Below are positions 1-59,908 of a DNA stretch of 64,000 bases, one piece after another. The position numbers and the translations under genes are program-made. The first letter of the stretch is position 1; the number at the start of each line of letters is the position of its first letter. Source of the DNA: Candidatus Marinacidobacterium sp. (lineage in GTDB: Bacteria; Acidobacteriota; Vicinamibacteria; Marinacidobacterales; Marinacidobacteraceae); the NCBI GenBank assembly GCA_965220965.1, contig OZ244852.1:1216001-1280000 (forward strand), in the 5' to 3' direction. Under the pieces are notes generated by a model, which searched no databases, was not told where the DNA came from, and saw nothing but the letters and a program-made list of their open reading frames with translations.

Positions 1-1
1 C

Positions 2-3000
2 TTCGAGGTGCGGGCGGTGAACGCCGGGGGCAACGGTGCGGCCGCCCAGGTGACGGCGACCCCGAACCCGCCGCTGCCCGAGGCGCCGGGTCTCACGGCG
101 ACGCCGGACGACACGAAGGTGACGCTGAACTGGACGGCGCCGACGAACACGACGAACATCGACAAGTACCAGTTCCAGTACCGGACGAGCCCGAGCGGGG
201 CGTGGGTCACCTGGGCGGACGTGGCGGGCGGCGGGACGGCGTCGAGCCAGGAGGTGACCGGGCTGACGAACGGGACCGCCTACGACTTCGAGGTGCGGGC
301 GGTGAACGCCGGGGGCAACGGGGCGGCCGCCCAGGTGACCGCGACCCCGAACCCGCCGCTGCCCGAGGCGCCGGGTCTCACGGCGACGCCGGACGACACG
401 AAGGTGACGCTGAACTGGACGGCGCCGACGAACACGACGAACATCGACAAGTATCAGTTCCAGTACCGGACGAGCCCGAGCGGGGCGTGGGTCACCTGGG
501 CGGACGTGGCTGGCGGCGGGACGGCGTCGAGCCAGGAGGTGACCGGGCTGACGAACGGGACCGCCTACGACTTCGAGGTGCGGGCGGTGAACGCCGGGGG
601 CAACGGGGCGGCCGCGCAGGTGACCGCGACCCCGAACCCGCCGCTGCCCGAGGCGCCGGGTCTCACGGCGACGCCGGACGACACGAAGGTGACGCTGAAC
701 TGGACGGCGCCGACGAACACGACGAACATCGACAAGTACCAGTTCCAGTACCGGACGAGCCCGAGCGGAGCATGGGTCACCTGGGCGGACGTGGCGGGCG
801 GCGGGACGGCGTCGAGCCAGGAGGTGACCGGACTGACGAACGGGACCGCCTACGACTTCGAGGTCCGGGCGGTGAATGCCGGGGGCAACGGTGCGGCCGC
901 CCAGGTGACGGCGACGCCGAACCCGCCGCTGCCCGAGGCGCCGGGTCTGAGCGCGACGCCGGACGACACGAAGGTGACGCTGAACTGGACGGCGCCGACG
1001 AACACGACGAACATCGACAAGTACCAGTTCCAGTACCGGACGAGCCCGAGCGGGGCGTGGGTCACCTGGGCGGACGTGGCTGGCGGCGGAACGGCGTCCA
1101 CCCAGGAGGTCACCGGGCTGACGAACGGGACCGCCTACGACTTCGAGGTGCGGGCGGTGAACAGCGGGGGCAACGGTGCGGCCGCCCAGGTGACGGCGAC
1201 CCCGAACCCGCCGCTGCCCGAGGCGCCGGGTCTGAGCGCGACGCCGGGCGACACGAAGGTGACGCTGAACTGGACGGCGCCGACGAACACGACGAACATC
1301 GACAAGTACCAGTTCCAGTACCGGACGAGCCCGAGCGGGGCGTGGATCACCTGGGCGGACGTGGCTGGCGGCGGGACGGCGTCCACCCAGGAGGTCACCG
1401 GGCTGACGAACGGGACCGCCTACGACTTCGAGGTCCGGGCGGTGAACGCCGGGGGCAACGGTGCGGCCGCGCAGGTGACGGCGACCCCGAACCCGCCGCT
1501 GCCCGAGGCGCCGGGTCTGAGCGCGACGCCGGACGACACGAAGGTGACGCTGAACTGGACGGCGCCGACGAACACGACGAACATCGACAAGTACCAGTTC
1601 CAGTACCGGACGAGCCCGAGCGGGGCGTGGGTCACCTGGGCGGACGTGGCTGGCGGCGGGACGGCGTCGAGCCAGGAGGTGACCGGACTGACGAACGGGA
1701 CCGCCTACGACTTCGAGGTCCGGGCGGTGAACGCCGGGGGCAACGGGGCGGCCGCCCAGGTGACGGCGACCCCGAACCCGCCGCTGCCCGAGGCGCCGGG
1801 TCTCACGGCGACGCCGGACGACACGAAGGTGACGCTGAACTGGACGGCGCCGACGAACACGACGAACATCGACAAGTACCAGTTCCAGTACCGGACGAGC
1901 CCGAGCGGGGCGTGGGTCACCTGGGCGGACGTGGCGGGCGGCGGAACGGCGTCGAGCCAGGAGGTGACCGGACTGACGAACGGGACCGCCTACGACTTCG
2001 AGGTCCGGGCGGTGAACGCCGGGGGCAACGGTGCGGCCGCCCAGGTGACGGCGACCCCGAACCCGCCGCTGCCCGAGGCGCCGGGTCTCACGGCGACGCC
2101 GGACGACACGAAGGTGACGCTGAACTGGACGGCGCCGACGAACACGACGAACATCGACAAGTATCAGTTCCAGTACCGGACGAGCCCGAGCGGAGCATGG
2201 GTCACCTGGGCGGACGTGGCGGGCGGCGGGACGGCGTCCACCCAGGAGGTCACCGGACTGACGAACGGGACGGCCTACGACTTCGAGGTGCGGGCGGTGA
2301 ACGCCGGGGGCAACGGTGCGGCCGCGCAGGTGACGGCGACCCCGAACCCGCCGCTGCCCGAGGCGCCGGGTCTGTCTGCGACGCCGGACGACACGAAGGT
2401 GACGCTGAACTGGACGGCGCCGACGAACACGACGAACATCGACAAGTACCAGTTCCAGTACCGGACGAGCCCGAGCGGGGCGTGGGTCACCTGGGCGGAC
2501 GTGGCTGGCGGCGGGACGGCGTCCACCCAGGAGGTCACCGGGCTGACGAACGGGACCGCCTACGACTTCGAGGTCCGGGCGGTGAACAGCGGGGGCAACG
2601 GTGCGGCCGCCCAGGTGACGGCGACCCCGAACCCGCCGCTGCCCGAGGCGCCGGGTCTGTCTGCGACGCCGGACGACACGAAGGTGACGCTGAACTGGAC
2701 GGCGCCGACGAACACGACGAACATCGACAAGTACCAGTTCCAGTACCGGACGAGCCCGAGCGGGGCGTGGGTCACCTGGGCGGACGTGGCGGGCGGCGGG
2801 ACGGCGTCGAGCCAGGAGGTCACCGGACTGACGAACGGGACGGCCTACGACTTCGAGGTCCGGGCGGTGAACGCCGGGGGCAACGGGGCGGCCGCGCAGG
2901 TGACGGCGACCCCGAACCCGCCGCTGCCCGAGGCGCCGGGTCTCACGGCGACGCCGGACGACACGAAGGTGACGCTGAACTGGACGGCGCCGACGAACAC

Positions 3001-6000
3001 GACGAACATCGACAAGTACCAGTTCCAGTACCGGACGAGCCCGAGCGGGGCGTGGGTCACCTGGGCGGACGTGGCTGGCGGCGGAACGGCGTCGAGCCAG
3101 GAAGTGACCGGGCTGACGAACGGGACCGCCTACGACTTCGAGGTGCGGGCGGTGAACGCCGGGGGCAACGGGGCGGCCGCGCAGGTGACGGCGACCCCGA
3201 ACCCGCCGCTGCCCGAGGCGCCGGGTCTCACGGCGACGCCGGACGACACGAAGGTGACGCTGAACTGGACGGCGCCGACGAACACGACGAACATCGACAA
3301 GTACCAGTTCCAGTACCGGACGAGCCCGAGCGGGGCGTGGGTCACCTGGGCGGACGTGGCTGGCGGCGGAACGGCGTCGAGCCAGGAAGTGACCGGGCTG
3401 ACGAACGGGACCGCCTACGACTTCGAGGTGCGGGCGGTGAACAGCGGGGGCAACGGTGCTGCCGCCCAGGTGACGGCGACGCCGAACCCGCCGCTGCCCG
3501 AGGCGCCGGGTCTGAGCGCGACGCCGGACGACACGAAGGTGACGCTGAACTGGACGGCGCCGACGAACACGACGAACATCGACAAGTACCAGTTCCAGTA
3601 CCGGACGAGCCCGAGCGGGGCGTGGGTCACCTGGGCGGACGTGGCTGGCGGCGGGACGGCGTCGAGCCAGGAGGTGACCGGGCTGACGAACGGGACGGCC
3701 TACGACTTCGAGGTGCGGGCGGTGAACGCCGGGGGCAACGGGGCGGCCGCCCAGGTGACGGCGACCCCGAACCCGCCGCTGCCCGAGGCGCCGGGTCTGA
3801 GCGCGACGCCGGACGACACGAAGGTGACGCTGAACTGGACGGCGCCGACGAACACGACGAACATCGACAAGTATCAGTTCCAGTACCGGACGAGCCCGAG
3901 CGGGGCGTGGGTCACCTGGGCGGACGTGGCGGGCGGCGGAACGGCGTCGAGCCAGGAGGTGACCGGGCTGACGAACGGGACGGCCTACGACTTCGAGGTG
4001 CGGGCCGTGAACGCCGGGGGCAACGGTGCGGCCGCCCAGGTGACGGCGACCCCGAACCCGCCGCTGCCCGAGGCGCCGGGTCTCACGGCGACGCCGGACG
4101 ACACGAGGGTGACGCTGAACTGGACGGCGCCGACGAACACGACGAACATCGACAAGTATCAGTTCCAGTACCGGACGAGTCCGAGCGGGGCGTGGGTCAC
4201 CTGGGCGGACGTGGCTGGCGGCGGAACCGCGTCGAGCCAGGAAGTGACCGGGCTGACGAACGGGACGGCCTACGACTTCGAGGTGCGGGCGGTGAACAGC
4301 GGGGGCAACGGTGCGGCCGCCCAGGTGACGGCGACCCCGAACCCGCCGCTGCCCGAGGCGCCGGATCTCACGGCGACGCCGGGCGACACGAAGGTGACGC
4401 TGAACTGGACGGCGCCGACGAACACGACGAACATCGACAAGTACCAGTTCCAGTACCGGACGAGCCCGAGCGGGGCGTGGGTCACCTGGGCGGACGTGGC
4501 GGGCGGCGGGACGGCGTCGAGCCAGGAGGTGACCGGGCTGACGAACGGGACCGCCTACGACTTCGAGGTCCGGGCGGTGAACAGCGGGGGCAACGGTGCG
4601 GCCGCCCAGGTGACGGCGACCCCGATGCTGGCGAACCAGCCGCCGACGGTCGTGGGGACCGGGATCGACGACCAGACCGTCGACGAGGGAGGGGCCACGA
4701 CCGTTGTGGAGCTCGCCGGCGCGTTCAGCGACCCCGAGGGCCAGCCGCTGACGTTCACGGCCGTTTCGAGTGACACCGCGCTGGCGACGGTGGCGGTGAC
4801 CGGTTCGACGCTGACGATCACAGGGGTCGCGTTGGGGACCGCGACGGTCACGGTGACCGCCGCCGATCCGGAAAACCTGTCGGTCACCGACGACTTCACG
4901 GTGACGGTCGAGGCTGTGCTCCCCGAGGCGCCCGGGGACTTCGAAGCGACCCACGGCGACACAAGGGTCACGCTGAGCTGGACGGCCCCCACGAATACGA
5001 GCCAGATCCTCTACTACGAGATGCGCTACGGGATCTGGGAGCCCTTCGAGCCAGGCGCCTGGACGAGGGTTCCCGGCGACGGAGGAGCCACCGGCCTCGA
5101 GGTGACCGGCCTCAGCAACCGCTATCGATACAGGTTCGAAGTCCGGGCGGTCAACGACGCCGGACGCGGCCCCGTCGCCTCGAAGACCGCGCATCCGCTG
5201 CCCTTGCTCCCCGATGCGCCCACCGGCTTCACCGCGGACGCGGGCGACGCCCAGGTCGTGCTGAACTGGACGGTTCCCACGAACACGACCGAAATCGACT
5301 GGATGGAGGTCCGCTACGGGAAGACCTCCGAGGGCCTCGACGGACGAGGCTGGGTCATCCTGCCGGGCAAACCGACCAAGACGACCTATACCGCGACCGG
5401 GCTGGAGAACGGTGAGGAATACACCTTCCACGTCCGGGCAAAGAACTACATCGGGTGGGGTCCCCACGCCTCCACGACCGCCACGCCGGTCCTTTCGGCT
5501 CCCGATGCGCCGACCGGCTTCACCGCGACGCCTGGCGACACCGAGGTCTCGCTGAGCTGGACACCGCCGACGAACACCAGCGAGATCGATGACTTCCAGA
5601 TCCGCTACCGGGAGACCTCGGACACGACGACCGAGGGCCCTTGGACCACTCTCGCGGCCAACGTCACGAGTTACACGGTTATCGGGCTGACGAACGGGAC
5701 GGAATACACGTTCGACGTCCGGGCGCGGAACACGGAGGGGGACAGCGCGCCGGCGACGACGACCGGCATTCCCGCCCTGAACGCGCCCGACGCGCCGGGG
5801 AGCTTCGAAGCAGCGCCGGGCGACACGAAGGTCACGCTGAGCTGGACCATCCCCACGAACACCAGCGAAATCGACAGCTTCCGGGTGCGTTACCGCGAAA
5901 ATGCGGCCCCCCCGAACTCGGGAACCTGGACCACGGTGGATGGAGCGGCGACCAGCTACGAGGTCCCGGGGCTCGCCAACTGGACCTTCTACCGGTTCGA

Positions 6001-9000
6001 GATCCAGGCGGTGAACACCGCCGGGAACAGCCCGATCGCGTGGAAGACCGCGACTCCGGCGGCCCCGACCCCCGACGCTCCCGAGAATCTCGAGGCGCGC
6101 CCGGGAGACACCGTGGTCGTGCTCACCTGGAGCGCGCCGGCGAACACCAACGAGCCCCTCATCTACACCTACCGCTACAAGCAGAGTTCGGCGGCGCAGT
6201 TCGGATCCTGGTTCCCGGTGGGCGGCGTAAACCCCACCGAACGACACGTCGACGGCCTGACGAACGGGATCGAATACACGTTCGAAGTGCGCGGGAGCCA
6301 CTTCGGAGGAGACGGCGCGGCCGCCTCGGTGACCGCAACGCCCACCCTGGCGCTACCCCCGGCGCCCGCGGACCTCCGAGCGACGCCAGGAGACACCCAG
6401 GTCACGCTGAACTGGGCCCGCACCAATGCCTCGACCGAGGTCGACAACTTCGAGGTTCGCCACCGGGGCACGGGCGGCTGGACCGCCTGGACCACCGTCC
6501 CGGGCGGAGAAGACGCCAGAAGCACCACGATCACCGGCCTTACGAACGGAGTCCGGTACTTCTTCGAAGTGCGGTCGGTCAACAGCCGGGGGAACAGCGC
6601 CGCCAACACGGCGTCGGCGATTCCGATTCCGCCGCTTCCCGACGCGCCGGGCAGCCTCACGGCGACGGCGGGCGACTCGAGCGTGTCGCTGAGCTGGACG
6701 ACGCCGGCGAACACGAGCTCGATCGACAAGTACCAGGTCCAGCACCGCACGAGCCCGAACGGGGCGTGGACCACCTGGACCGACGTTGACGGCGGCGGAA
6801 CGGCTTCCAGCCACACGGTCGCCGGGCTGACGAACGGGGTCCCCTACGACTTTGCGGTGCGGGCGGTGAACAGCGAGGGCGAGGGGCCGGCCGCCGAAGT
6901 GCCTGCGACGCCGATGAACCAGCCGCCGACGCTGGACAACCCGATCGCGGACCAGTCGGTCACGGTGGGGGAGACGACGGACGTGGAGCTGGCGAACGTG
7001 TTCAGCGATCCGGGTGGGCAGACGCTGACGCTGACGGCGCTCTCGAGGGACACCGCGCGGGCGACGGTGGTGGTGAACGGGACGACGCTGGAGATCACCG
7101 GGGTTGCGGTGGGGACGCCGACGGTGACGGTGACCGCCGACGATGGAGAGGGCGGCTCGGTCACGGACACGTTCACGGTGACGGTGTCGCCGGTGATCCC
7201 GGCGGCGCCGGGTCTCACGGCGACGCCGGACGACACGAAGGTGACGCTGAACTGGACGGCGCCGACGAACACGACGAACATCGACAAGTACCAGTTCCAG
7301 TACCGGACGAGCCCGAGCGGGGCGTGGGTCACCTGGGCGGACGTGGCGGGCGGCGGGACGGCGTCGAGCCAGGAGGTGACCGGGCTGACGAACGGGACGG
7401 CCTACGACTTCGAGGTCCGGGCGGTGAACGCCGGGGGCAACGGTGCGGCCGCCCAGGTGACGGCGACCCCGAACCCGCCGCTGCCCGAGGCGCCGGGTCT
7501 GTCTGCGACGCCGGACGACACGAAGGTGACGCTGAACTGGACGGCGCCGACGAACACGACGAACATCGACAAGTACCAGTTCCAGTACCGGACGAGCCCG
7601 AGCGGGGCGTGGGTCACCTGGGCGGACGTGGCGGGCGGCGGGACGGCGTCGAGCCAGGAGGTGACCGGGCTGACGAACGGGACGGCCTACGACTTCGAGG
7701 TCCGGGCGGTGAACGCCGGGGGCAACGGGGCGGCCGCCCAGGTGACGGCGACCCCGAACCCGCCGCTGCCCGAGGCGCCGGGTCTGAGCGCGACGCCGGA
7801 CGACACGAAGGTGACGCTGAACTGGACGGCGCCGACGAACACGACGAACATCGACAAGTACCAGTTCCAGTACCGGACGAGCCCGAGCGGGGCGTGGGTC
7901 ACCTGGGCGGACGTGGCGGGCGGCGGAACGGCGTCGAGCCAGGAGGTGACCGGGCTGACGAACGGGACGGCCTACGACTTCGAGGTCCGGGCGGTGAACG
8001 CCGGGGGCAACGGAGCGGCCGCCCAGGTGACGGCGACCCCGAACCCGCCGCTGCCCGAGGCGCCGGGTCTCACGGCGACGCCGGACGACACGAAGGTGAC
8101 GCTGAACTGGACGGCGCCGACGAACACGACGAACATCGACAAGTACCAGTTCCAGTACCGGACGAGCCCGAGCGGGGCGTGGGTCACCTGGGCGGACGTG
8201 GCTGGCGGCGGGACCGCGTCGAGCCAGGAGGTGACCGGGCTGACGAACGGGACGGCCTACGACTTCGAGGTCCGGGCGGTGAACGCCGCGGGCAACGGGA
8301 CGGCCGCCCAGGTGACGGCGACCCCGAACCCGCCGCTGCCCGAGGCGCCGGGTCTGTCTGCGACGCCGGACGACACGAAGGTGACGCTGAACTGGACGGC
8401 GCCGACGAACACGACGAACATCGACAAGTACCAGTTCCAGTACCGGACGAGCCCGAGCGGAGCGTGGATCACCTGGGCGGACGTGGCTGGCGGCGGAACG
8501 GCGTCGAGCCAGGAGGTGACCGGGCTGACGAACGGGACCGCCTACGACTTCGAGGTGCGGGCGGTGAACGCCGGGGGCAACGGGGCGGCCGCCCAGGTGA
8601 CCGCGACGCCGAACCCGCCGCTGCCCGAGGCGCCGGGTCTCACGGCGACGCCGGACGACACGAAGGTGACGCTGAACTGGACGGCGCCGACGAACACGAC
8701 GAACATCGACAAGTACCAGTTCCAGTACCGGACGAGCCCGAGCGGAGCGTGGATCACCTGGGCGGACGTGGCGGGCGGCGGAACGGCGTCGAGCCAGGAG
8801 GTGACCGGGCTGACGAACGGGACCGCCTACGACTTCGAGGTGCGGGCGGTGAACGCCGGGGGCAACGGTGCGGCCGCCCAGGTGACGGCGACGCCGAACC
8901 CGCCGCTGCCCGAGGCGCCGGGTCTCACGGCGACGCCGGACGACACGAAGGTGACGCTGAACTGGACGGCGCCGACGAACACGACGAACATCGACAAGTA

Positions 9001-12000
9001 CCAGTTCCAGTACCGGACGAGCCCGAGCGGGGCGTGGGTCACCTGGGCGGACGTGGCGGGCGGCGGGACGGCGTCCACCCAGGAGGTCACCGGGCTGACG
9101 AACGGGACCGCCTACGACTTCGAGGTCCGGGCGGTGAACAGCGGAGGCAACGGTGCGGCCGCCCAGGTGACGGCGACCCCGAACCCGCCGCTGCCCGAGG
9201 CGCCGGGTCTGAGCGCGACGCCGGACGACACGAAGGTGACACTGAACTGGACGGCGCCGACGAACACGACGAACATCGACAAGTACCAGTTCCAGTACCG
9301 GACGAGCCCGAGCGGGGCGTGGGTCACCTGGGCGGACGTGGCGGGCGGCGGGACCGCGTCGAGCCAGGAGGTGACCGGGCTGACGAACGGGACGGCCTAC
9401 GACTTCGAGGTGCGGGCGGTGAACGCCGGGGGCAACGGTGCGGCCGCCCAGGTGACGGCGACCCCGAACCCGCCGCTGCCCGAGGCGCCGGGTCTGTCGG
9501 CGACGCCGGACGACACGAAGGTGACGCTGAACTGGACGGCGCCGACGAACACGACGAACATCGACAAGTACCAGTTCCAGTACCGGACGAGCCCGAGCGG
9601 GGCGTGGATCACCTGGGCGGACGTGGCGGGCGGCGGGATGGCGTCCACCCAGGAGGTCACCGGGCTGACGAACGGGACGGCCTACGACTTCGAGGTGCGG
9701 GCGGTGAACGCCGGGGGCAACGGTGCGGCCGCGCAGGTGACGGCGACCCCGAACCCGCCGCTGCCCGAGGCGCCGGGTCTGTCGGCGACGCCGGACGACA
9801 CGAAGGTGACGCTGAACTGGACGGCGCCGACGAACACGACGAACATCGACAAGTACCAGTTCCAGTACCGGACGAGCCCGAGCGGGGCGTGGGTCACCTG
9901 GGCGGACGTGGCGGGCGGCGGGACCGCGTCGAGCCAGGAGGTGACCGGACTGACGAACGGGACAGCCTACGACTTCGAGGTGCGGGCGGTGAACAGCGGG
10001 GGCAACGGGGCGGCCGCCCAGGTGACGGCGACCCCGAACCCGCCGCTGCCCGAGGCGCCGGGTCTGTCTGCGACGCCGGACGACACGAAGGTGACGCTGA
10101 ACTGGACGGCGCCGACGAACACGACGAACATCGACAAGTACCAGTTCCAGTACCGGACGAGCCCGAGCGGGGCGTGGGTCACCTGGGCGGACGTGGCTGG
10201 CGGCGGGACCGCGTCGAGCCAGGAGGTCACCGGGCTGACGAACGGGACCGCCTACGACTTCGAGGTCCGGGCGGTGAACAGCGGGGGCAACGGTGCGGCC
10301 GCGCAGGTGACGGCGACCCCGAACCCGCCGCTGCCCGAGGCGCCGGGTCTGTCGGCGACGCCGGACGACACGAAGGTGACGCTGAACTGGACGGCGCCGA
10401 CGAACACGACGAACATCGACAAGTACCAGTTCCAGTACCGGACGAGCCCGAGCGGGGCGTGGGTCACCTGGGCGGACGTGGCGGGCGGCGGGACGGCGTC
10501 GAGCCAGGAGGTGACCGGGCTGACGAACGGGACCGCCTACGACTTCGAGGTGCGGGCGGTGAACGCCGGGGGCAACGGGACGGCCGCCCAGGTGACGGCG
10601 ACCCCGAACCCGCCGCTGCCCGAGGCGCCGGGTCTCACGGCGACGCCGGACGACACGAAGGTGACGCTGAACTGGACGGCGCCGACGAACACGACGAACA
10701 TCGACAAGTACCAGTTCCAGTACCGGACGAGCCCGAGCGGGGCGTGGGTCACCTGGGCGGACGTGGCTGGCGGCGGGACGGCGTCGAGCCAGGAGGTGAC
10801 CGGGCTGACGAACGGGACCGCCTACGACTTCGAGGTCCGGGCGGTGAACGCCGGGGGCAACGGTGCGGCCGCGCAGGTGACGGCGACCCCGAACCCGCCG
10901 CTGCCCGAGGCGCCGGGTCTCACGGCGACGCCGGGCGACACGAAGGTGACGCTGAACTGGACGGCGCCGACGAACACGACGAACATCGACAAGTACCAGT
11001 TCCAGTACCGGACGAGCCCGAGCGGGGCGTGGGTCACCTGGGCGGACGTGGCGGGCGGCGGAACGGCGTCGAGCCAGGAGGTGACCGGGCTGACGAACGG
11101 GACCGCCTACGACTTCGAGGTCCGGGCGGTGAACGCCGGGGGCAATGGTGCGGCCGCCCAGGTGACAGCGACCCCGGCGCTGGCGGTCCCCGGCCAGCCG
11201 CAGAACCTAACCGCCGCCGCGGGGAACGCCCAGGTCACGCTGAACTGGAATGCGCCAACGAACACGACCGAGATCCTCCGCTACGAGGTTCGCTGGCGGG
11301 AGACCCGGGCGAACACCTGGGCGAACTGGACCAATGTGATCGGGGCCACCACAACCACGATCACCGGGCTGAACAACGGAATCGAGCACATCTTCCAGGT
11401 GCGGGCCGTGAACAGCGAAGGGACCGGCCCCCACAACTCGGTGACCGCGACGCCGACCCTGACGAAGCCCGAGGCCCCCGGGGGCCTCACCGCGACGGCC
11501 GGGGACACCGAGGTCACGCTGACCTGGACCGCGCCGACGAACACCAACGAGATCGACGGCTACGAAGTCCGCTACCGGGAGGGCGCGGGGACGTTCGAGG
11601 AATGGGCCACGGTGAACGGCGGCGCCAGCGCCAGGACCACGACGGTCACCGGGCTGACCAACGGAATCGTTCACACCTTCGAGGTGCGCGCGGTCAACGA
11701 AATCCACGATGGCGACGTGGCCTCGACGACGGAGACGCCGACGCTGCCGAAGCCGGACGCGCCGGGGAACTTCAACGCGGCGCCGGGCGACACCGTGGTC
11801 ACGCTGACCTGGACCGCACCCACCAACGCGAGCTCGATCACCGACTTCCAGGTCCGCCACCGGCAGACCTCGGTCACGGCCGACGGCCCCTGGACCATCC
11901 TCGACGCCACGCAGACCAGCTTCACGGTCACCGGGCTGACGAACGGGATCAACTACACCTTCGACATCCAGGCGCGCAACGCCTCCGGGGAGAGCCCGGT

Positions 12001-55525: not shown

Positions 55526-55629
55526 GGAACCGCTTTCAAGCCGGCCGATTGTCAGCGCGGGCGCCAGGGGGCGCAAGCTCCGGCGCCGCGCCGGCCTGTT
55601 CCCGATACCGACCTGCGAGGAAGACGCCC

Positions 55630-56829
55630 ATGTCCCGCCCCCTCCCGAAACGAGCCGCTCATCCCGTCCTGGCGGTGGTCCCGATGCCCGCCCGGGCGCG
55701 CTGGCCCCGCAGCCAGCCCGACCCGCTCCCGGTTCCGATCACCGACCCGGAGCACGGGCGCCCGCTCCGGCCGGCGGCGGCGATCGCCTGCGAGGTCTCG
55801 GAAGACGGCATCGGAGGCGAGTTCGACACCGCCCGCGAGCGGATCCTCGAGTGGGTGGAGACCCGCACCGGTCCGCTCCCGGAGAGCTTCGCCGAACGCC
55901 GCCAGGAGAGCGCGACCTCACGGATGGCGCGTTTCGAGTGCGGCGGAGCCCGGGTGGAGGCCGTGGACCGGGCGCTGGGGCGCGGCCGGTACTTCGGACT
56001 CCTGCTCGAGAGCGGAAGCGCCCCCGAACAGCCCGTTTCGCGCGTCCGGGCGGCCATCTTCCGCTCGGGCGGCGGAACGCACCTGCGAATGACGCTCGAG
56101 GCGCCGCGGCGCTTCGCGGAGGGGCTCCGCCCGATGGCGTGGACGCCCCGCGTGGTCCACGACCTGATCGCCTCTCCCGGGCTCATCGACTACGGCTGGC
56201 GCATCGTGAACGAGCCCTGGGTGGTGGATGACGAGGAGAGCGTGGAGGGCCTGATCCACCTCATCGCCGATCCGGCGCGGACCCGGCCGGTCTTCGCGAC
56301 CGGGCTCAGCGGGGCGCAGACCGACCCGGAAGCGTGCAGCGTGGATCCCTGGGACCTCGCCCTGCGGACCGCCGGGCTCGCCCACGTGGTGGTGCTGACC
56401 GGACCGATGACCTACGTGCTCTCGGACCGGGTCGGCCGGCGCTTCAGCGTCTTCGGGGATGCGTTCCGCACCTACCGGCCGGGGCGCCGAATCCTCGAGG
56501 ACGCCCGCGCGCACCCGATCGCGCTTTCCGACACGGTGCGGGAGTGGCCCGACGGCGGACCACGGCGCTTCGCGCTCTATCTGGCGCGCGAGGCGGCGCG
56601 GATGAGCCTCGCCTGCCAGATGACGCGCTCGGGGTGGGGGATGGGCGACATGATCGGAGCGACCACCGGGATCCGCCTGGCCGATGTTTCCGTGACGCAG
56701 CGGGTCGAGCTCCCCGTCGAGGACGGCGGCCTGGACCATCCGGTCGGAACCGGGACCGACGCCGGCGAAGCGGCGGAACCGGCGCGCCTGCGAGCGGTCG
56801 CCGGAGCCAAGGCGCGGCCCGCCTCCTGA
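55630..56829 (+). CDS. Hypothetical protein (accessory island)
   Basis: GAGGAAG SD and ATG at 55630; globular-looking core (LIADPARTRPV...LA.RTAGLAHVVVL...SVFGDAFRTYRPG). Confidence 0.65.
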   Translation: MSRPLPKRAAHPVLAVVPMPARARWPRSQPDPLPVPITDPEHGRPLRPAAAIACEVSEDGIGGEFDTARERILEWVETRTGPLPESFAERRQESATSRMARFECGGARVEAVDRALGRGRYFGLLLESGSAPEQPVSRVRAAIFRSGGGTHLRMTLEAPRRFAEGLRPMAWTPRVVHDLIASPGLIDYGWRIVNEPWVVDDEESVEGLIHLIADPARTRPVFATGLSGAQTDPEACSVDPWDLALRTAGLAHVVVLTGPMTYVLSDRVGRRFSVFGDAFRTYRPGRRILEDARAHPIALSDTVREWPDGGPRRFALYLAREAARMSLACQMTRSGWGMGDMIGATTGIRLADVSVTQRVELPVEDGGLDHPVGTGTDAGEAAEPARLRAVAGAKARPAS

Positions 56830-56869: not shown

Positions 56870-58108
56870 CTACGGCGTCCCCGGACCCTTTTTCCACAGG
56901 CGGACGGTGAAGCGGCTCTCGTCCTCGACGAGCTCGGGCTCCGTCCCGTTGTGCGCCTTCATACCGGGGATCATCCGCTGGCGCACGCCCATCCCGCGAA
57001 ACTCCACGTAGCCGTAATCGCGCATGAAATTGACCAGGTTCTGGTTGCGCGCGTAACGGGTTCCCGAGCGCATCCCATCCGGCGTGACCGTGTTCGGCAG
57101 CCGCCCGGGGCTGACGACCTCGAGGCGGTCCGAGAAGATCGTCAGCATGATGTCGGCGCCGGTGATGCTGTAGTCGCGGTGAACCAGCGCGTTCCCCACC
57201 GCCTCTCGCACCACCGCTTCCGGGTAGTCCCAACGGTCGATGCGGCGACCCCCTTCCAGCCGGGCGGTCGGCGTGGTGTTCCGGCGCACGAAATCGATGG
57301 CCTGGTCCACGAGTCCCGGTTCGACCCGCGAGCCGTCGCGGGCGCCGAGCGGAACCATCGGGCCACGCAGGACTTCATCGGCCCGCGCCGCATAGTCCGG
57401 CGCCTTGCCCGGAAAGCAGATGGCGCGGATGCCCGATTGCGGAAGGAACCGCTTCGTGTTGCTCCCGAAAAGCAGCATCCCGTCGACGGTCGCCGCCGGG
57501 CGCTCCACGGCCGGGGTCGCGAGCTCCAGATTCACCAGCAGGTGGCGCCACGCGTCCGGATCGTCCTCTCCGGGCGCCTCGCCTCCGAGAACCCGGGTGA
57601 AATAGTCGCGGAGCCGTCGCTCGTCGAGCATCCCGATACCGGACCCGGGAACCGGTTTGCATCCGTACCGCAGCTGACCCGACGCCTGGTAGAGGCGTCC
57701 TTCCTCGTCGCGCGTCGCATCCCGCGTGGTCGTTCCGACCCGGACCCTGGTCAGCCAGGCGCCTCCGCGCTTCGCCTTGTAGGGCTTGTCAGGCGCGTCC
57801 GTCGGCAGCGAGACGACGCCGACGACCTTCCCGTCGTCCCAGAGGATCGTCTCCCACCAGGGATTCGTCGCCGGCTGGAGGTGAGTCCGGGCCGCCTCCA
57901 TGACCCATTCCTCGGCCTTGCGGCGATCGCGCGTGAGGCCACTGACCGTTCCGTCGTCCTCCACGCCGAGGAGGATGCGGCCACCCGCCAGGTTCAGGAA
58001 CCCGGCCATTTCCTCCGCGAGCTTCTGCGCCGAGATGTCGTCCCGCTTGAACTCCACACCCGAGCTCTCGCCATTGCGGAGCAGATCGATCAGTTCGGCC
58101 CTGGTCAT
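56870..58108 (-). CDS. Schlafen/AlbA_2-domain protein with 'RecG C-terminal' HATPase_c_4-like domain
   Basis: GES..VEFKR, A.FLN..GG.ILLGV.DDG, YP...VREA..NALVHRDY, DRLEV.SPG, RN. Confidence 0.85.
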   Translation of the reverse strand: MTRAELIDLLRNGESSGVEFKRDDISAQKLAEEMAGFLNLAGGRILLGVEDDGTVSGLTRDRRKAEEWVMEAARTHLQPATNPWWETILWDDGKVVGVVSLPTDAPDKPYKAKRGGAWLTRVRVGTTTRDATRDEEGRLYQASGQLRYGCKPVPGSGIGMLDERRLRDYFTRVLGGEAPGEDDPDAWRHLLVNLELATPAVERPAATVDGMLLFGSNTKRFLPQSGIRAICFPGKAPDYAARADEVLRGPMVPLGARDGSRVEPGLVDQAIDFVRRNTTPTARLEGGRRIDRWDYPEAVVREAVGNALVHRDYSITGADIMLTIFSDRLEVVSPGRLPNTVTPDGMRSGTRYARNQNLVNFMRDYGYVEFRGMGVRQRMIPGMKAHNGTEPELVEDESRFTVRLWKKGPGTP

Positions 58109-58237
58109 GAGGATCGGAGTTTCAGCGTCTGGTCAGGAAGTCCGCCGCCCGGCGCGAGCGCCTCAACCTGCGCTGGCGGCCTCGCCGGCAGCATAGTGTC
58201 GCAAAGCGCTCCAATCGGCCCCGGGAAATCCACTGGC

Positions 58238-58503
58238 GCGGCCTCGGCCCGACGTCAGGGTCGCAGTCAGCGGCGCCCCAAACTGACAATCTGCCGAAGC
58301 TCGAATTGACAATCGGCCGACGAGTACACTGGCATTCAGCCGGAACCACTACTACTAGTCATGTTTATCATCAACTTATATGATCTCATAATGCCAGATA
58401 TGTGATCGGAAACACGATTCCTGACCCTCATTCGACCCCTATTCTGACAATCAGCCGGGCCCTATATTGACAATTGGCCGAAGCCTCAACCTACAATCAG
58501 CCG
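58238..58503 (+). repeat. In-phase 23-bp-period direct-repeat array (13-bp core TGACAATCRGCCG + 10-bp variable spacer) flanking an AT-rich centre
   Basis: Cores at 58261, 58284, 58307, 58330, 58422, 58445, 58468, 58491 (degenerate at 58238); all are 58238+23n. Confidence 0.85.
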
Positions 58504-59856
58504 ATGCCGCACCCGTTTCTCTTCCGACGCCGCATCGAGCCGCGGCTGATGGAGGCGCTGGACGACTCGCCGGTGGTGCTGATTCACGGCCCGCGCCAGT
58601 GCGGCAAGACGACGCTCGCCCGCTACGCCTGCACCAGGGACCACCCCTGGGCGTCGGGCGACGCGCATCCACATGTCAACGACGGTGGGCGGGCTGGTTC
58701 GGGAGGGTCCGACGGGCGGCGCGACTACGCGTACATCAGTCTGGACGATGCGGTGGCGCGCGAAACCGCCCGGGCCGATCCCGCCGGCATGGTCGCCGAG
58801 CTGCCGGAGCGGGTCATCCTGGACGAGGTTCAGCGGGTCCCGGAGCTGTTCGAGGCGATCAAGCTGGAAGTGGATCGCCGGCGGGCGGCGGGCCGGTTTC
58901 TGCTCACCGGGTCCACGAACGTGCTGCTGATTCCGCGCCTTTCGGACTCGCTGGCCGGCCGCATGCAGATCGTGCGGCTCCATCCGCTCGCGCAGCGGGA
59001 GCTCACGGCTGAGGCGCCACCGGCCAATGTCGCGCAACAGCCGGAGTTCCTCGACGTTCTGTTCGGCGCCGCCTTCCGGGTGCGCCGAACCGCCCGCCTC
59101 GGTGGCGAGCTCCTCGAACGGATCGTCGCCGGCGGCTTTCCGCCGGCGCTGGCGAATCCGACGGACCGTCGCCGGGCCAACTGGCAACGCGACTACATGA
59201 CCACCCTGCTGGAGCGCGACGTGCGCGAGATGGCGCGGATAACGGCGCTCGATGCGCTTCCGAGGCTGCTTCAGGCGGCGGCGACGCAGACCGCGCGCCT
59301 GTTCAACCTGGCGGACCTTGCGGCGCCGTTCCGGGTCAGCCGGGGGACGATCGGCGGCTACGTCGCGCTGCTGGAGCGGCTGTTCCTGCTGGAACGGGTA
59401 CCGGCGTGGCACAGCAATCGCCTGCGGCGGCTCGTGAAGAGCCCCAGGCTGCACTTCGGCGACACCGGTCTGGCGGCGGCGCTGCTGGGGGCCGACGCGC
59501 CCGCGTTACGGGACGACGGAACGCTGCTGGGGCAGCTCCTGGAGACTTTCGTCTACCAGGAACTGCGGCGGCAGGCGAGCTGGCATGCGAGCGCCACCAA
59601 CTTCTTCCACTTCCGCGACCGTGACGGCGCGGAAGTCGACATCGTCATCGAACGGGGACACCGCGCGGTCGCGGGCGTGGAGGTCAAGGCCGGGGCCACG
59701 GTCAGGGCATCCGACTTTCGCGGGCTGAAGAAACTGGCCGCGGCCGCGGGAGATCGCTTCGCCTGCGGCGTCGTGCTCCACAACGGCGAGATGTGCGCGC
59801 GCTTCGGGGATCGCCTCTACGCCGCGCCCATTCGCACCCTGTGGGAGACGCCCTGA
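58504..59856 (+). CDS. AAA+ ATPase (AAA_14-type) with DUF4143 / C-terminal PD-(D/E)xK-like nuclease domain
   Basis: Walker A GPRQCGKT, Walker B ILDEVQ, LLTGS, SLAGR, GGFP, K...DTGL, LE.FV..EL, RD.DG.EVD.VIE...VEVK; ATG at 58504. Confidence 0.9.
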   Translation: MPHPFLFRRRIEPRLMEALDDSPVVLIHGPRQCGKTTLARYACTRDHPWASGDAHPHVNDGGRAGSGGSDGRRDYAYISLDDAVARETARADPAGMVAELPERVILDEVQRVPELFEAIKLEVDRRRAAGRFLLTGSTNVLLIPRLSDSLAGRMQIVRLHPLAQRELTAEAPPANVAQQPEFLDVLFGAAFRVRRTARLGGELLERIVAGGFPPALANPTDRRRANWQRDYMTTLLERDVREMARITALDALPRLLQAAATQTARLFNLADLAAPFRVSRGTIGGYVALLERLFLLERVPAWHSNRLRRLVKSPRLHFGDTGLAAALLGADAPALRDDGTLLGQLLETFVYQELRRQASWHASATNFFHFRDRDGAEVDIVIERGHRAVAGVEVKAGATVRASDFRGLKKLAAAAGDRFACGVVLHNGEMCARFGDRLYAAPIRTLWETP

Positions 59857-59908
59857 GGCTGGCCGTCAGCAGCCCGCCGTCGATTCCGCCGCGCCGGCGA
59901 ACGCGCGA

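Follow-up and report, generated by a model that had tools for sequence, protein, structure and literature searches.

Proteins that join an AAA_14 ATPase domain to a DUF4143 domain (COG1373) are known under the name PDC-S01, one of the PDCs, a set whose definition started from genes embedded within BREX, DISARM and type I systems (bioRxiv 10.1101/2024.01.29.577857). DUF4143 has been classified as a PD-(D/E)XK family of unknown function (PMC3424549), and a 2026 survey places PDC-S01, which has no validated function, fourth among the commonest defences of prokaryotes, while most PDCs still await validation (PMC12988326). In E. coli B, one PDC-S01 representative was not among the four out of eight candidates listed as protecting against at least one of T7, T5 and T4 (bioRxiv 10.1101/2024.09.26.614923). 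Those passages of this literature that concern PDC-S01 present it as a single protein-coding gene, with no mention there of an array upstream. Here, we describe a 64,000-nt stretch of contig OZ244852.1 (the window, to whose positions all coordinates refer), in which a PDC-S01 gene is immediately preceded by an array of direct repeats phased at 23 bp. The array is probably, though by no means assuredly, a portable, self-regulated leaderless promoter, in which the tandem units are putative operators for the product of the gene itself. No description of such an array was found in the literature searched on the topics DUF4143, PDC-S01, COG1373 and AAA_14, supplements aside, which agrees with an earlier reading of the locus made from its letters alone (the sequence-only reading), where either of the systems proposed was called undescribed.

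The closest regulatory parallel appears to be provided by the C proteins of type II restriction systems. These proteins are autoregulated through binding sites, the C-boxes, placed just before the start codon of their own gene, many of their mRNAs are predicted or have been shown to be leaderless, and the module has spread horizontally and is followed by a toxic nuclease gene that is often cotranscribed (PMC2632904). The present locus resembles them in the placing of the putative sites, in the proposed binding by the gene's own product and the proposed autoregulatory circuit, in its horizontal spread and, for a subset of the related loci, in the position of the cassette directly upstream of hsdR. 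The two differ in several respects. C-boxes are palindromic pairs recognised by a dimer of a small Xre-type helix-turn-helix (HTH) protein, whereas the array comprises two to eight or more direct repeats at 23 bp and the protein is a 450-aa AAA+/nuclease fusion, in contrast to the roughly 10 kDa of a C protein. Moreover, the known C systems are of type II and the hsdR-linked loci found here of type I, and C promoters have no clear -10 element, whereas that of the array is clear.

The affiliation of the window protein with PDC-S01 is well founded, as both Pfam domains are present (AAA_14, 2.1e-23; DUF4143, 3.7e-45) and the PADLOC model PDLC04790 matches with E = 5.7e-154 and 510.9 bits. The Walker A and B motifs are intact; GPRQCGKT at residue 29 (Walker A) and the ILDEVQ that follows are both invariant in the family alignment A1, as are the C-terminal residues D372, D374, E377, D379, E393 and K395 of a D..EVD..EVK signature, which corresponds to a PD-(D/E)XK-type motif. 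Between this gene and its divergent neighbour lies a gap of 395 bp (58109-58503) with a GC content of 57.5%, compared with 71.6% for the window. The array takes up 58261-58503, with six strong and two degenerate units around an AT-rich centre; the units start at 58261, 58284, 58307 and 58330 and, beyond the centre, at 58422, 58445, 58468 and 58491, and the last core ends at 58503, with the ATG of the ATPase gene adjoining at 58504. Common to the units is a 13-bp core, TT[G/T/A]CAAT[C/T][A/G]GCCG, of which the window version is TGACAATCNGCCG. The scores of the individual units (Table 1) were obtained with a weight matrix derived from the upstream regions of relatives; by the same matrix, the three 23-bp registers of the AT-rich centre score -17.7, -7.6 and -24.7 bits and are not units.

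The exact TGACAATCNGCCG pattern is present in four copies in the window and has no match in any of 100 dinucleotide shuffles, and a repeat search of the window recovered a four-copy family with spacings of 23, 138 and 23. The self-identity of 58261-58503 at lag 23 amounts to 0.477, compared with a mean of 0.255, a standard deviation of 0.029 and a maximum of 0.355 in 5000 base shuffles. Tandem Repeats Finder, run with a minimum score of 30, did not report the array, and the TGACAATCNGCCG pattern with up to three mismatches showed no enrichment over the whole window (51 matches vs 69 expected). All the cores, linkers and coordinates given in the sequence-only reading are present in the sequence, and its AT-rich centre of 69 bp, with two GATC and the register kept across it, was recovered as exactly three registers. 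Its term repeat-spacer seems overstated, since the 10-nt linkers show partial conservation: some positions are rich in A, and a C immediately precedes the following core. A coding function of the repeats was considered and set aside, given that the period of 23 is not a multiple of three and that an in-frame TGA occurs at 58468.

Close relatives of the window protein, at 63-76% identity, are very numerous and come from sources that bear the names of different phyla. No relatives were confirmed when genomes were scanned with the single protein, whereas with alignment A1, 582 of the 591 candidate stretches encoded relatives; the best 80 of these 582, together with the window, form the set of 81 loci from 19 phyla on which the comparisons below are based (individual loci are cited by L numbers). 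A first sign that the repeats are conserved came from the alignment itself, in which six gene calls (P0027, P0029, P0030, P0036, P0103 and P0111) were over-extended at the N terminus into upstream DNA, the extensions of P0030, P0036, P0103 and P0111 ending in a similar peptide just before the Met. With the weight matrix, at least two same-strand units, mostly three or four, were detected within 600 bp upstream of the gene in 70 of the 81 loci, and the spacing between detected units was 23 bp in 165 of 207 cases and 22 bp in another 23. The upstream zones contained one minus-strand match in total, and the background was 0.04 per kb. An autocorrelation of the 150 nt upstream, which makes no use of the motif, reached 0.448 at lag 23, with 0.31 at lag 22, 0.39 at lag 46 and around 0.25 at most other lags; two control regions gave no peak at lag 23. 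Lag 23 was the best lag in 64 of 79 loci and lag 22 in seven. Periodic direct repeats upstream of homologous genes, which the sequence-only reading had proposed to look for, are thus a regular feature of these loci.

With regard to the nine loci without a matrix match, the arrays of L017, L024, L052 and L080 have a period of 22 or 23 bp and different cores, two copies are seen in L073 and a repeat of 46 bp in L076; no array was found upstream of the gene in L044 and L079. The arrays comprise two to eight or more units, usually three to five. That of L015 (Bryobacterales) consists of at least 18 units between -540 and -100, in which three core types alternate within a higher-order repeat of 69 bp (3 x 23), and comes to an end some 100 nt short of the gene. 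The information content is 1.2-1.7 bits at core positions, a range inflated by the choice of seeds, and about 0.05-0.5 bits in the linkers. Conservation is equally strong in the 3' half of the core (..[C/T][A/G]GCCG) and in its 5' half, and the mean core identity is higher within arrays (0.875) than between arrays (0.740).

The units closest to the gene carry promoter-like hexamers. In the window these are a -35 element TTGACA at 58467-58472 and a -10 element TACAAT at 58492-58497, which had been noticed from the letters alone as promoter elements of a likely leaderless gene and which were found at those positions, in the last two units and at a placing that suits a leaderless start. An in-frame start codon lies 0-3 nt past the last detected core in 43 of the 70 arrays; a further 14 or so have a degenerate last unit, and in several of these a TATAAT-like hexamer lies 6-7 nt before the ATG. 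The pattern TAnnnT at core positions 2-7 distinguishes the last unit, where it occurs in 36 of the 45 arrays with an abutting start codon, from the other units, where it occurs in 7 of 137; in the unit before the last, TTGCAA or TTTCAA is commonest. Of the 40 rows of alignment A1, 33 have a predicted protein start at the Met that corresponds to ATG 58504, by manual count. Outside the set of loci, on plasmids of cultured strains, the annotated start codons of homologues in Agrobacterium (pAt) and Chelativorans adjoin a 22-bp array, and in Rhizobium etli (p42f) and Sphingomonas a gap of 13-24 nt separates the 22-bp array from the start codon; in Thermus thermophilus the 22-bp repeats are weaker and TACAAT is placed 6 nt before the ATG. 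Because the -10 element of the window ends 6 nt before the A of the ATG, this geometry leads to an expected transcript start at the start codon, and the mRNA would begin at the A of ATG 58504.

Array and gene appear to have been transferred together. In all-against-all blastn comparisons between unrelated hosts, similarity starts in the array and stops at or just past the stop codon, as in L006 and L055 (79% identical over -97 to 1325) and in L022 and L030 (85% over -61 to 1264). The flanking open reading frames (ORFs; 71 upstream and 73 downstream were scanned) are mixed, mainly housekeeping genes with a minority related to defence or restriction, and relatives are found on contigs of several megabases among housekeeping genes. 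The intergenic DNA of the window had no match in a plasmid collection, and a distant relative, at 26-29% identity, was found in three of 50,697 phage records. On a FastTree protein tree of 80 rows (79 loci plus the window, L045 being excluded as its frame runs past the expected end), the phylum label changes 39 times, compared with a minimum of 18 and a shuffled mean of 51 for the 19 phyla; this mixing appears extensive, although some labels of metagenome-assembled genomes may be wrong. To judge from these comparisons, the array and the ATPase gene are the only unit conserved across the 19 phyla, and no protein other than the ATPase-nuclease is always found with the array. Only three of 80 loci have a Schlafen homologue within 6 kb, at varying positions, which speaks against the co-regulation of the divergent Schlafen gene that the sequence-only reading had put forward. 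The Schlafen protein as the binder of the units was dropped on the same count, since it is not a conserved neighbour.

A link to type I restriction is seen on the downstream side. In L040, L054, L060 and L067, an intact type I hsdR follows directly on the same strand, with hsdS also upstream in L040 and L060, and in L001, L006, L013 and L064 the stop codon is followed by no more than the opening codons of an HsdR-like N terminus. The blastn alignment between the window and L001 reaches about 34 nt past the stop codon, and about 45 nt can be aligned by eye with the HsdR-like remnants, whose lengths vary from about 12 to 55 codons, likewise by eye. Since its post-stop DNA aligns with the hsdR 5' ends of relatives, the window cassette probably derives from a type I restriction operon, which it left with a ragged break on its downstream side.

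That the conserved transferred unit begins in the array would also suit a cis site for the movement of the cassette, that is, a recombination or integration site, a reading that we regard as improbable. Such a site could account for the gene-less second arrays of two to four units that are found just after the stop codon in L002, L049, L068 and L077 and at +3637 in L074, the one of L002 being a repeat of the first two units of the first array and the linker between them, and the definition of the family from genes embedded in other defence operons (bioRxiv 10.1101/2024.01.29.577857) would fit as well. On the other hand, there are no inverted arrays, as the single minus-strand match indicates, and no recombinase or transposase is consistently near among the flanking ORFs scanned. 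Furthermore, the downstream breakpoints are ragged, with hsdR remnants of differing length, which points to illegitimate or homologous recombination rather than to a site-specific event. The orphan arrays themselves could reflect a tandem duplication followed by the loss of one gene copy, and L059 contains tandem copies of the gene. Ends of the Tn7 and Mu type consist of clusters of transposase sites at both ends, in inverted orientation, together with a transposase; a transposon end with multiple transposase sites was rejected here in view of the lack of inverted arrays and of a consistent transposase among the neighbours.

Some further rearrangements were observed in individual loci. The tandem paralogues of L059 (-1844 to 1235) are 54% identical, and each has its own array with similar cores. 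In L027, the last 35-40 nt of the ATPase gene (7280-7314) are repeated about 1.7 kb downstream (8995-9035), bracketing a segment of 1.65 kb, and in the related L036 the same 1.65-kb segment is situated upstream of the gene.

Under the self-regulation model, the array would be the built-in control region of the gene, and the two would move as one compact unit. The last unit would double as the -10 element, the preceding unit would supply the -35 element, and the mRNA would begin at the start codon with no leader. Each core would be bound by a winged-helix part of the encoded protein, with protomers loading head to tail, one per 23 bp, and by covering the promoter they would repress their own synthesis; the AAA+ module may make the loading cooperative or nucleotide-dependent. 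This would retain part of a model outlined in the sequence-only reading: units that serve as a platform for the gene's own product fit the comparative data, whereas an origin or melting role and the Schlafen co-regulation do not. No signals specific to the host are required for a consensus-like promoter, leaderless translation and a self-encoded repressor, and for that reason the cassette could function after transfer to very different bacteria.

The units might instead be bound by a common host factor, or by nothing but RNA polymerase, as a promoter module of repeated -35-like hexamers kept for strong portable expression. RNA polymerase is the one DNA-binding machine common to all 19 phyla, the core begins with a half that looks like a -35 hexamer (TTGCAA, TTGACA), and the last unit takes the form of a -10 variant. 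However, the 3' half of the core ([C/T][A/G]GCCG) is not known to play a part in sigma-70 recognition and is as conserved as the -35-like half, so that RNA polymerase alone seems insufficient, and only the penultimate unit stands at -35 distance from the -10 element. The distant relatives also argue against this explanation, which we judge rather unlikely. At 26-39% identity, palindromes take the place of the direct repeats just before the start codon, as in the second copies of the gene in L007 and L039 and in the plasmid genes L086 (Azotobacter) and L088 (Moraxella bovis); in the second copy of L007, the palindromes are followed by TATACT 6 nt before the ATG. Other cores or palindromes at the same place fit a factor that diverges with the gene rather than a universal one, and self-control at a leaderless start may be a theme of the whole family.

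Binding by the encoded protein would require a DNA-binding module, which seems plausible for the ATPase-nuclease. Residues ~255-318 have the look of a winged helix, with a conserved S-R-P-T-I segment and with residue 281 in the putative recognition helix. A sequence search of a structure database with the family returned P-loop and weak winged-helix matches only and no close relative. Such a module is suggested by matches of the family profile in the PDB to the winged-helix regulators MarR and IclR, at positions 215-288, and by the language-model neighbours of a homologue's segment (HTH_5, HTH_IclR and DUF234). Several observations nevertheless weigh against self-regulation through it. The profile matches are weak (E = 0.15-0.3), and the neighbours score 0.79-0.84, below the 0.9 under which such scores are rated as leads only. 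The AlphaFold model, built from the shallow A1, has a mean predicted local distance difference test score (pLDDT) of 61.9, and one below 50 at residues 211-320. In favour of the model, a covariation between the core and the HTH region, to which the sequence-only reading had pointed, is suggested by residue 281, which is not Pro in all five arrays with a non-T second core base (the window included) and in 8 of the 64 others; this can be taken as a hint, as the column was chosen after viewing the alignment, the independent pairs number two to four and the median p of the sign test is 0.5. Against it, the paralogues of L059, which use similar cores at 54% identity, suggest that the specificity is not finely tuned. 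The 19-bp spacer of the -35/-10 pair of the window is long, and the pair was not listed by the promoter scan, which was limited to spacers of 16-18 bp. Finally, the self-regulation model leaves unexplained the orphan arrays after the gene in five loci, as well as the 69-bp AT-rich centre and the phase that is kept across it.

The AT-rich centre seems to be a particular property of few arrays. In the weight-matrix survey, an AT-rich gap was found among the 70 arrays only in the window and in L066, where it measures 64 nt, has 19% GC and is out of phase; the gap of L045, of 46 bp, is GC-rich and in phase. Random decay in a 72% GC genome would not yield AT-rich DNA, so the centre appears to have been selected or imported. 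Two sigma-70-like matches lie on its + strand, at 58356-58384 and 58365-58392, compared with 0.1 expected in the 4.6-kb region scanned, and the centre may be a second promoter or a bending site. In parC of R1, two blocks of direct repeats flank a core region, and a protein encoded by the operon coats them cooperatively and represses its own promoter. The two direct-repeat blocks of the window that flank a centre are reminiscent of this layout; the differences are that there is no gene for a partition ATPase or filament and that the repeat length and protein family are unrelated. This split into two blocks is shared with L045 and, out of phase, with L066, and is not general.

An AT-rich stretch among repeats also recalls replication origins. 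The iterons of theta plasmids are direct repeats of 17-22 bp placed before a Rep gene, which is repressed by its own product, and the array shares with them the same-strand tandem repeats about two helical turns apart (a period of 23 bp) before the gene for the proposed binder. If the array were an iteron-type origin, its units would bind an initiator and the AT-rich, GATC-bearing centre would unwind, and an AAA+ protein with a DNA-binding domain encoded right beside it would be in keeping with that role. Despite this resemblance, the DnaA-box pattern TTATNCACA with up to one mismatch is absent from 58109-58503, and its count over the whole window is four, vs 2.6 expected; no Rep-type family was found in the three genes of the surrounding island with Pfam and NCBIfam; and the AT-rich gap, present in two of 70 arrays, is no constant feature and no general unwinding element. 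The locus of the window is situated between rsmD/coaD and recG/miaA, and the settings of the relatives are chromosomal. An origin is thus hardly credible here, and the same lack of a DnaA-box-like site, of a plasmid setting and of a general AT-rich gap counts against the origin or melting role ascribed to the array from the letters alone.

The other model of the sequence-only reading, a transcribed mini repeat-spacer whose RNA guides the nuclease, appears very improbable. In its favour are the regular repeats with variable bases between them beside a nuclease gene and, in the window, the orientation of the sigma-70-like sites of the AT-rich centre, which are directed towards the four proximal units. 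Unlike CRISPR arrays, however, the present repeats have no unrelated spacers of comparable length, no known repeat family and no structured repeat RNA. The linkers are only 10 nt long and partly conserved, the predicted folding of the array, like that of single units, is not superior to that of shuffled sequences (z = +0.43, whole array), and no Rfam family reached its threshold, the best match being CRISPR-DR29 with 21.3 bits (cut-off 39), which lies inside the gene. In most loci the array is wholly upstream of the putative start site of transcription, and the arrays keep their sequence and their period of 23 from phylum to phylum, in contrast to acquired spacers. No cas gene was found among the 11 ORFs scanned at 52.8-64 kb, as the sequence-only reading had already remarked of the locus, nor among the flanking ORFs of the relatives.

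The array could also be an assembly platform on which the protein polymerises in register, as the resting or sensing state of a defence nuclease, with a promoter that also times a downstream hsdR in type I operons as C proteins do in type II. The arrays are long for a plain operator, with up to eight detected units and at least 18 in L015, and the phase is kept across gaps that are not units, of 69 bp in the window and 46 bp in L045. An intact hsdR lies directly downstream in four loci and five others, the window included, have a 5' remnant of it; C proteins provide a precedent, being autoregulated, often leaderless and bound before their start codon, with a toxic nuclease gene downstream (PMC2632904). 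Polymerisation is a supposition here, though, most loci are outside restriction operons, and the PDC-S01 representative assayed in E. coli B was not listed among the protective candidates (bioRxiv 10.1101/2024.09.26.614923), so that we consider a platform of this kind unlikely. A bolder version, to which we would assign a rather low likelihood, takes the array as the track of a head-to-tail filament of AAA+, winged-helix and nuclease parts, with one protomer per 23 bp. The DNA-anchored assembly would then be the working state of the protein, and could act as a self-marked resting complex that frees or activates the nuclease on infection; it could time the restriction subunit in type I operons and could serve as a recombination site for embedding in defence loci.

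The features of the locus are collected in Table 1. Three defence-type genes, the HEC-07-like ORF, the Schlafen gene and the PDC-S01 gene, lie between rsmD/coaD and a methyltransferase gene, which is followed by recG and miaA, and the segment 55527-59908 looks like a small defence island inserted in a housekeeping region; none of the three island proteins was named by NCBIfam. A further exact TGACAATCNGCCG copy is found at 55542-55554 on the - strand, 3 kb from the array and 16 nt upstream of the rsmD start codon (55526), pointing towards rsmD. No second unit stands beside it, and it may represent what is left of an earlier array, an isolated binding site or the island's edge. Elsewhere in the window, a giant ORF on the + strand (2-22018), which is open at the window's 5' boundary and encodes 7338 aa or more, contains a 285-bp (95-aa) repeat in about 39 tandem copies over 1-11176 and more 285-bp repeats at 16.5-19 kb, and has a strong A-over-T skew.

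Table 1. Features of the repeat array and of the genes around it, in window coordinates. Scores in bits are those of the weight matrix.
Feature	Position	Strand	Basis and remarks
HEC-07-like ORF	55630..56829		Match to the candidate HEC-07
SLFN_AlbA_2 + HATPase_c_4 (Schlafen) gene	56870..58108	-	Pfam
Outermost degenerate unit, TCGCAGTCAGCGG	58261..58273	+	In 23-bp register; -0.6 bits; 9/13 positions agree with the window's own consensus (by eye)
Distal block of three strong units (cores 58284, 58307, 58330)	58284..58342	+	23-bp spacing; two exact TGACAATCNGCCG matches; 18.3, 18.4 and 14.2 bits
AT-rich centre, 69 bp, exactly three unit registers	58353..58421	.	34.8% GC; two GATC
Degenerate unit, TGACCCTCATTCG, first of the proximal block	58422..58434	+	In register; -0.4 bits; 9/13 positions agree with the window's own consensus (by eye)
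Proximal block of three strong units (cores 58445, 58468, 58491), the last two with the putative promoter	58445..58503	+	18.4, 19.9 and 19.6 bits
AAA_14 + DUF4143 ATPase-nuclease gene, 450 aa, PADLOC candidate PDC-S01	58504..59856	+	Pfam, PADLOC
Probable remnant of the hsdR 5' end	59857..59905	+	Alignment with the post-stop DNA of L001, L006 and L013; by eye, no profile

The mechanism at work is probably autoregulation, which is ordinary in itself but takes an unusual form here, and does not call for a new class of system. If a large PDC-S01 clade carries a fixed control region, the functional unit would be the array plus the gene and not the ORF alone, and assays in which the ORF is placed under a foreign promoter, or in which the array is cut, could mislead. 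The array offers a defined DNA ligand for a family without a known substrate, which makes binding, ATP dependence and control of the nuclease testable. With regard to the history of the family, the first codons of hsdR that are retained in several copies, that of the window included, would be the footprint of cassettes leaving type I restriction operons. If the self-regulation model holds, array and gene would furthermore be a clean example of a self-contained expression cassette that is able to work in at least 19 phyla.

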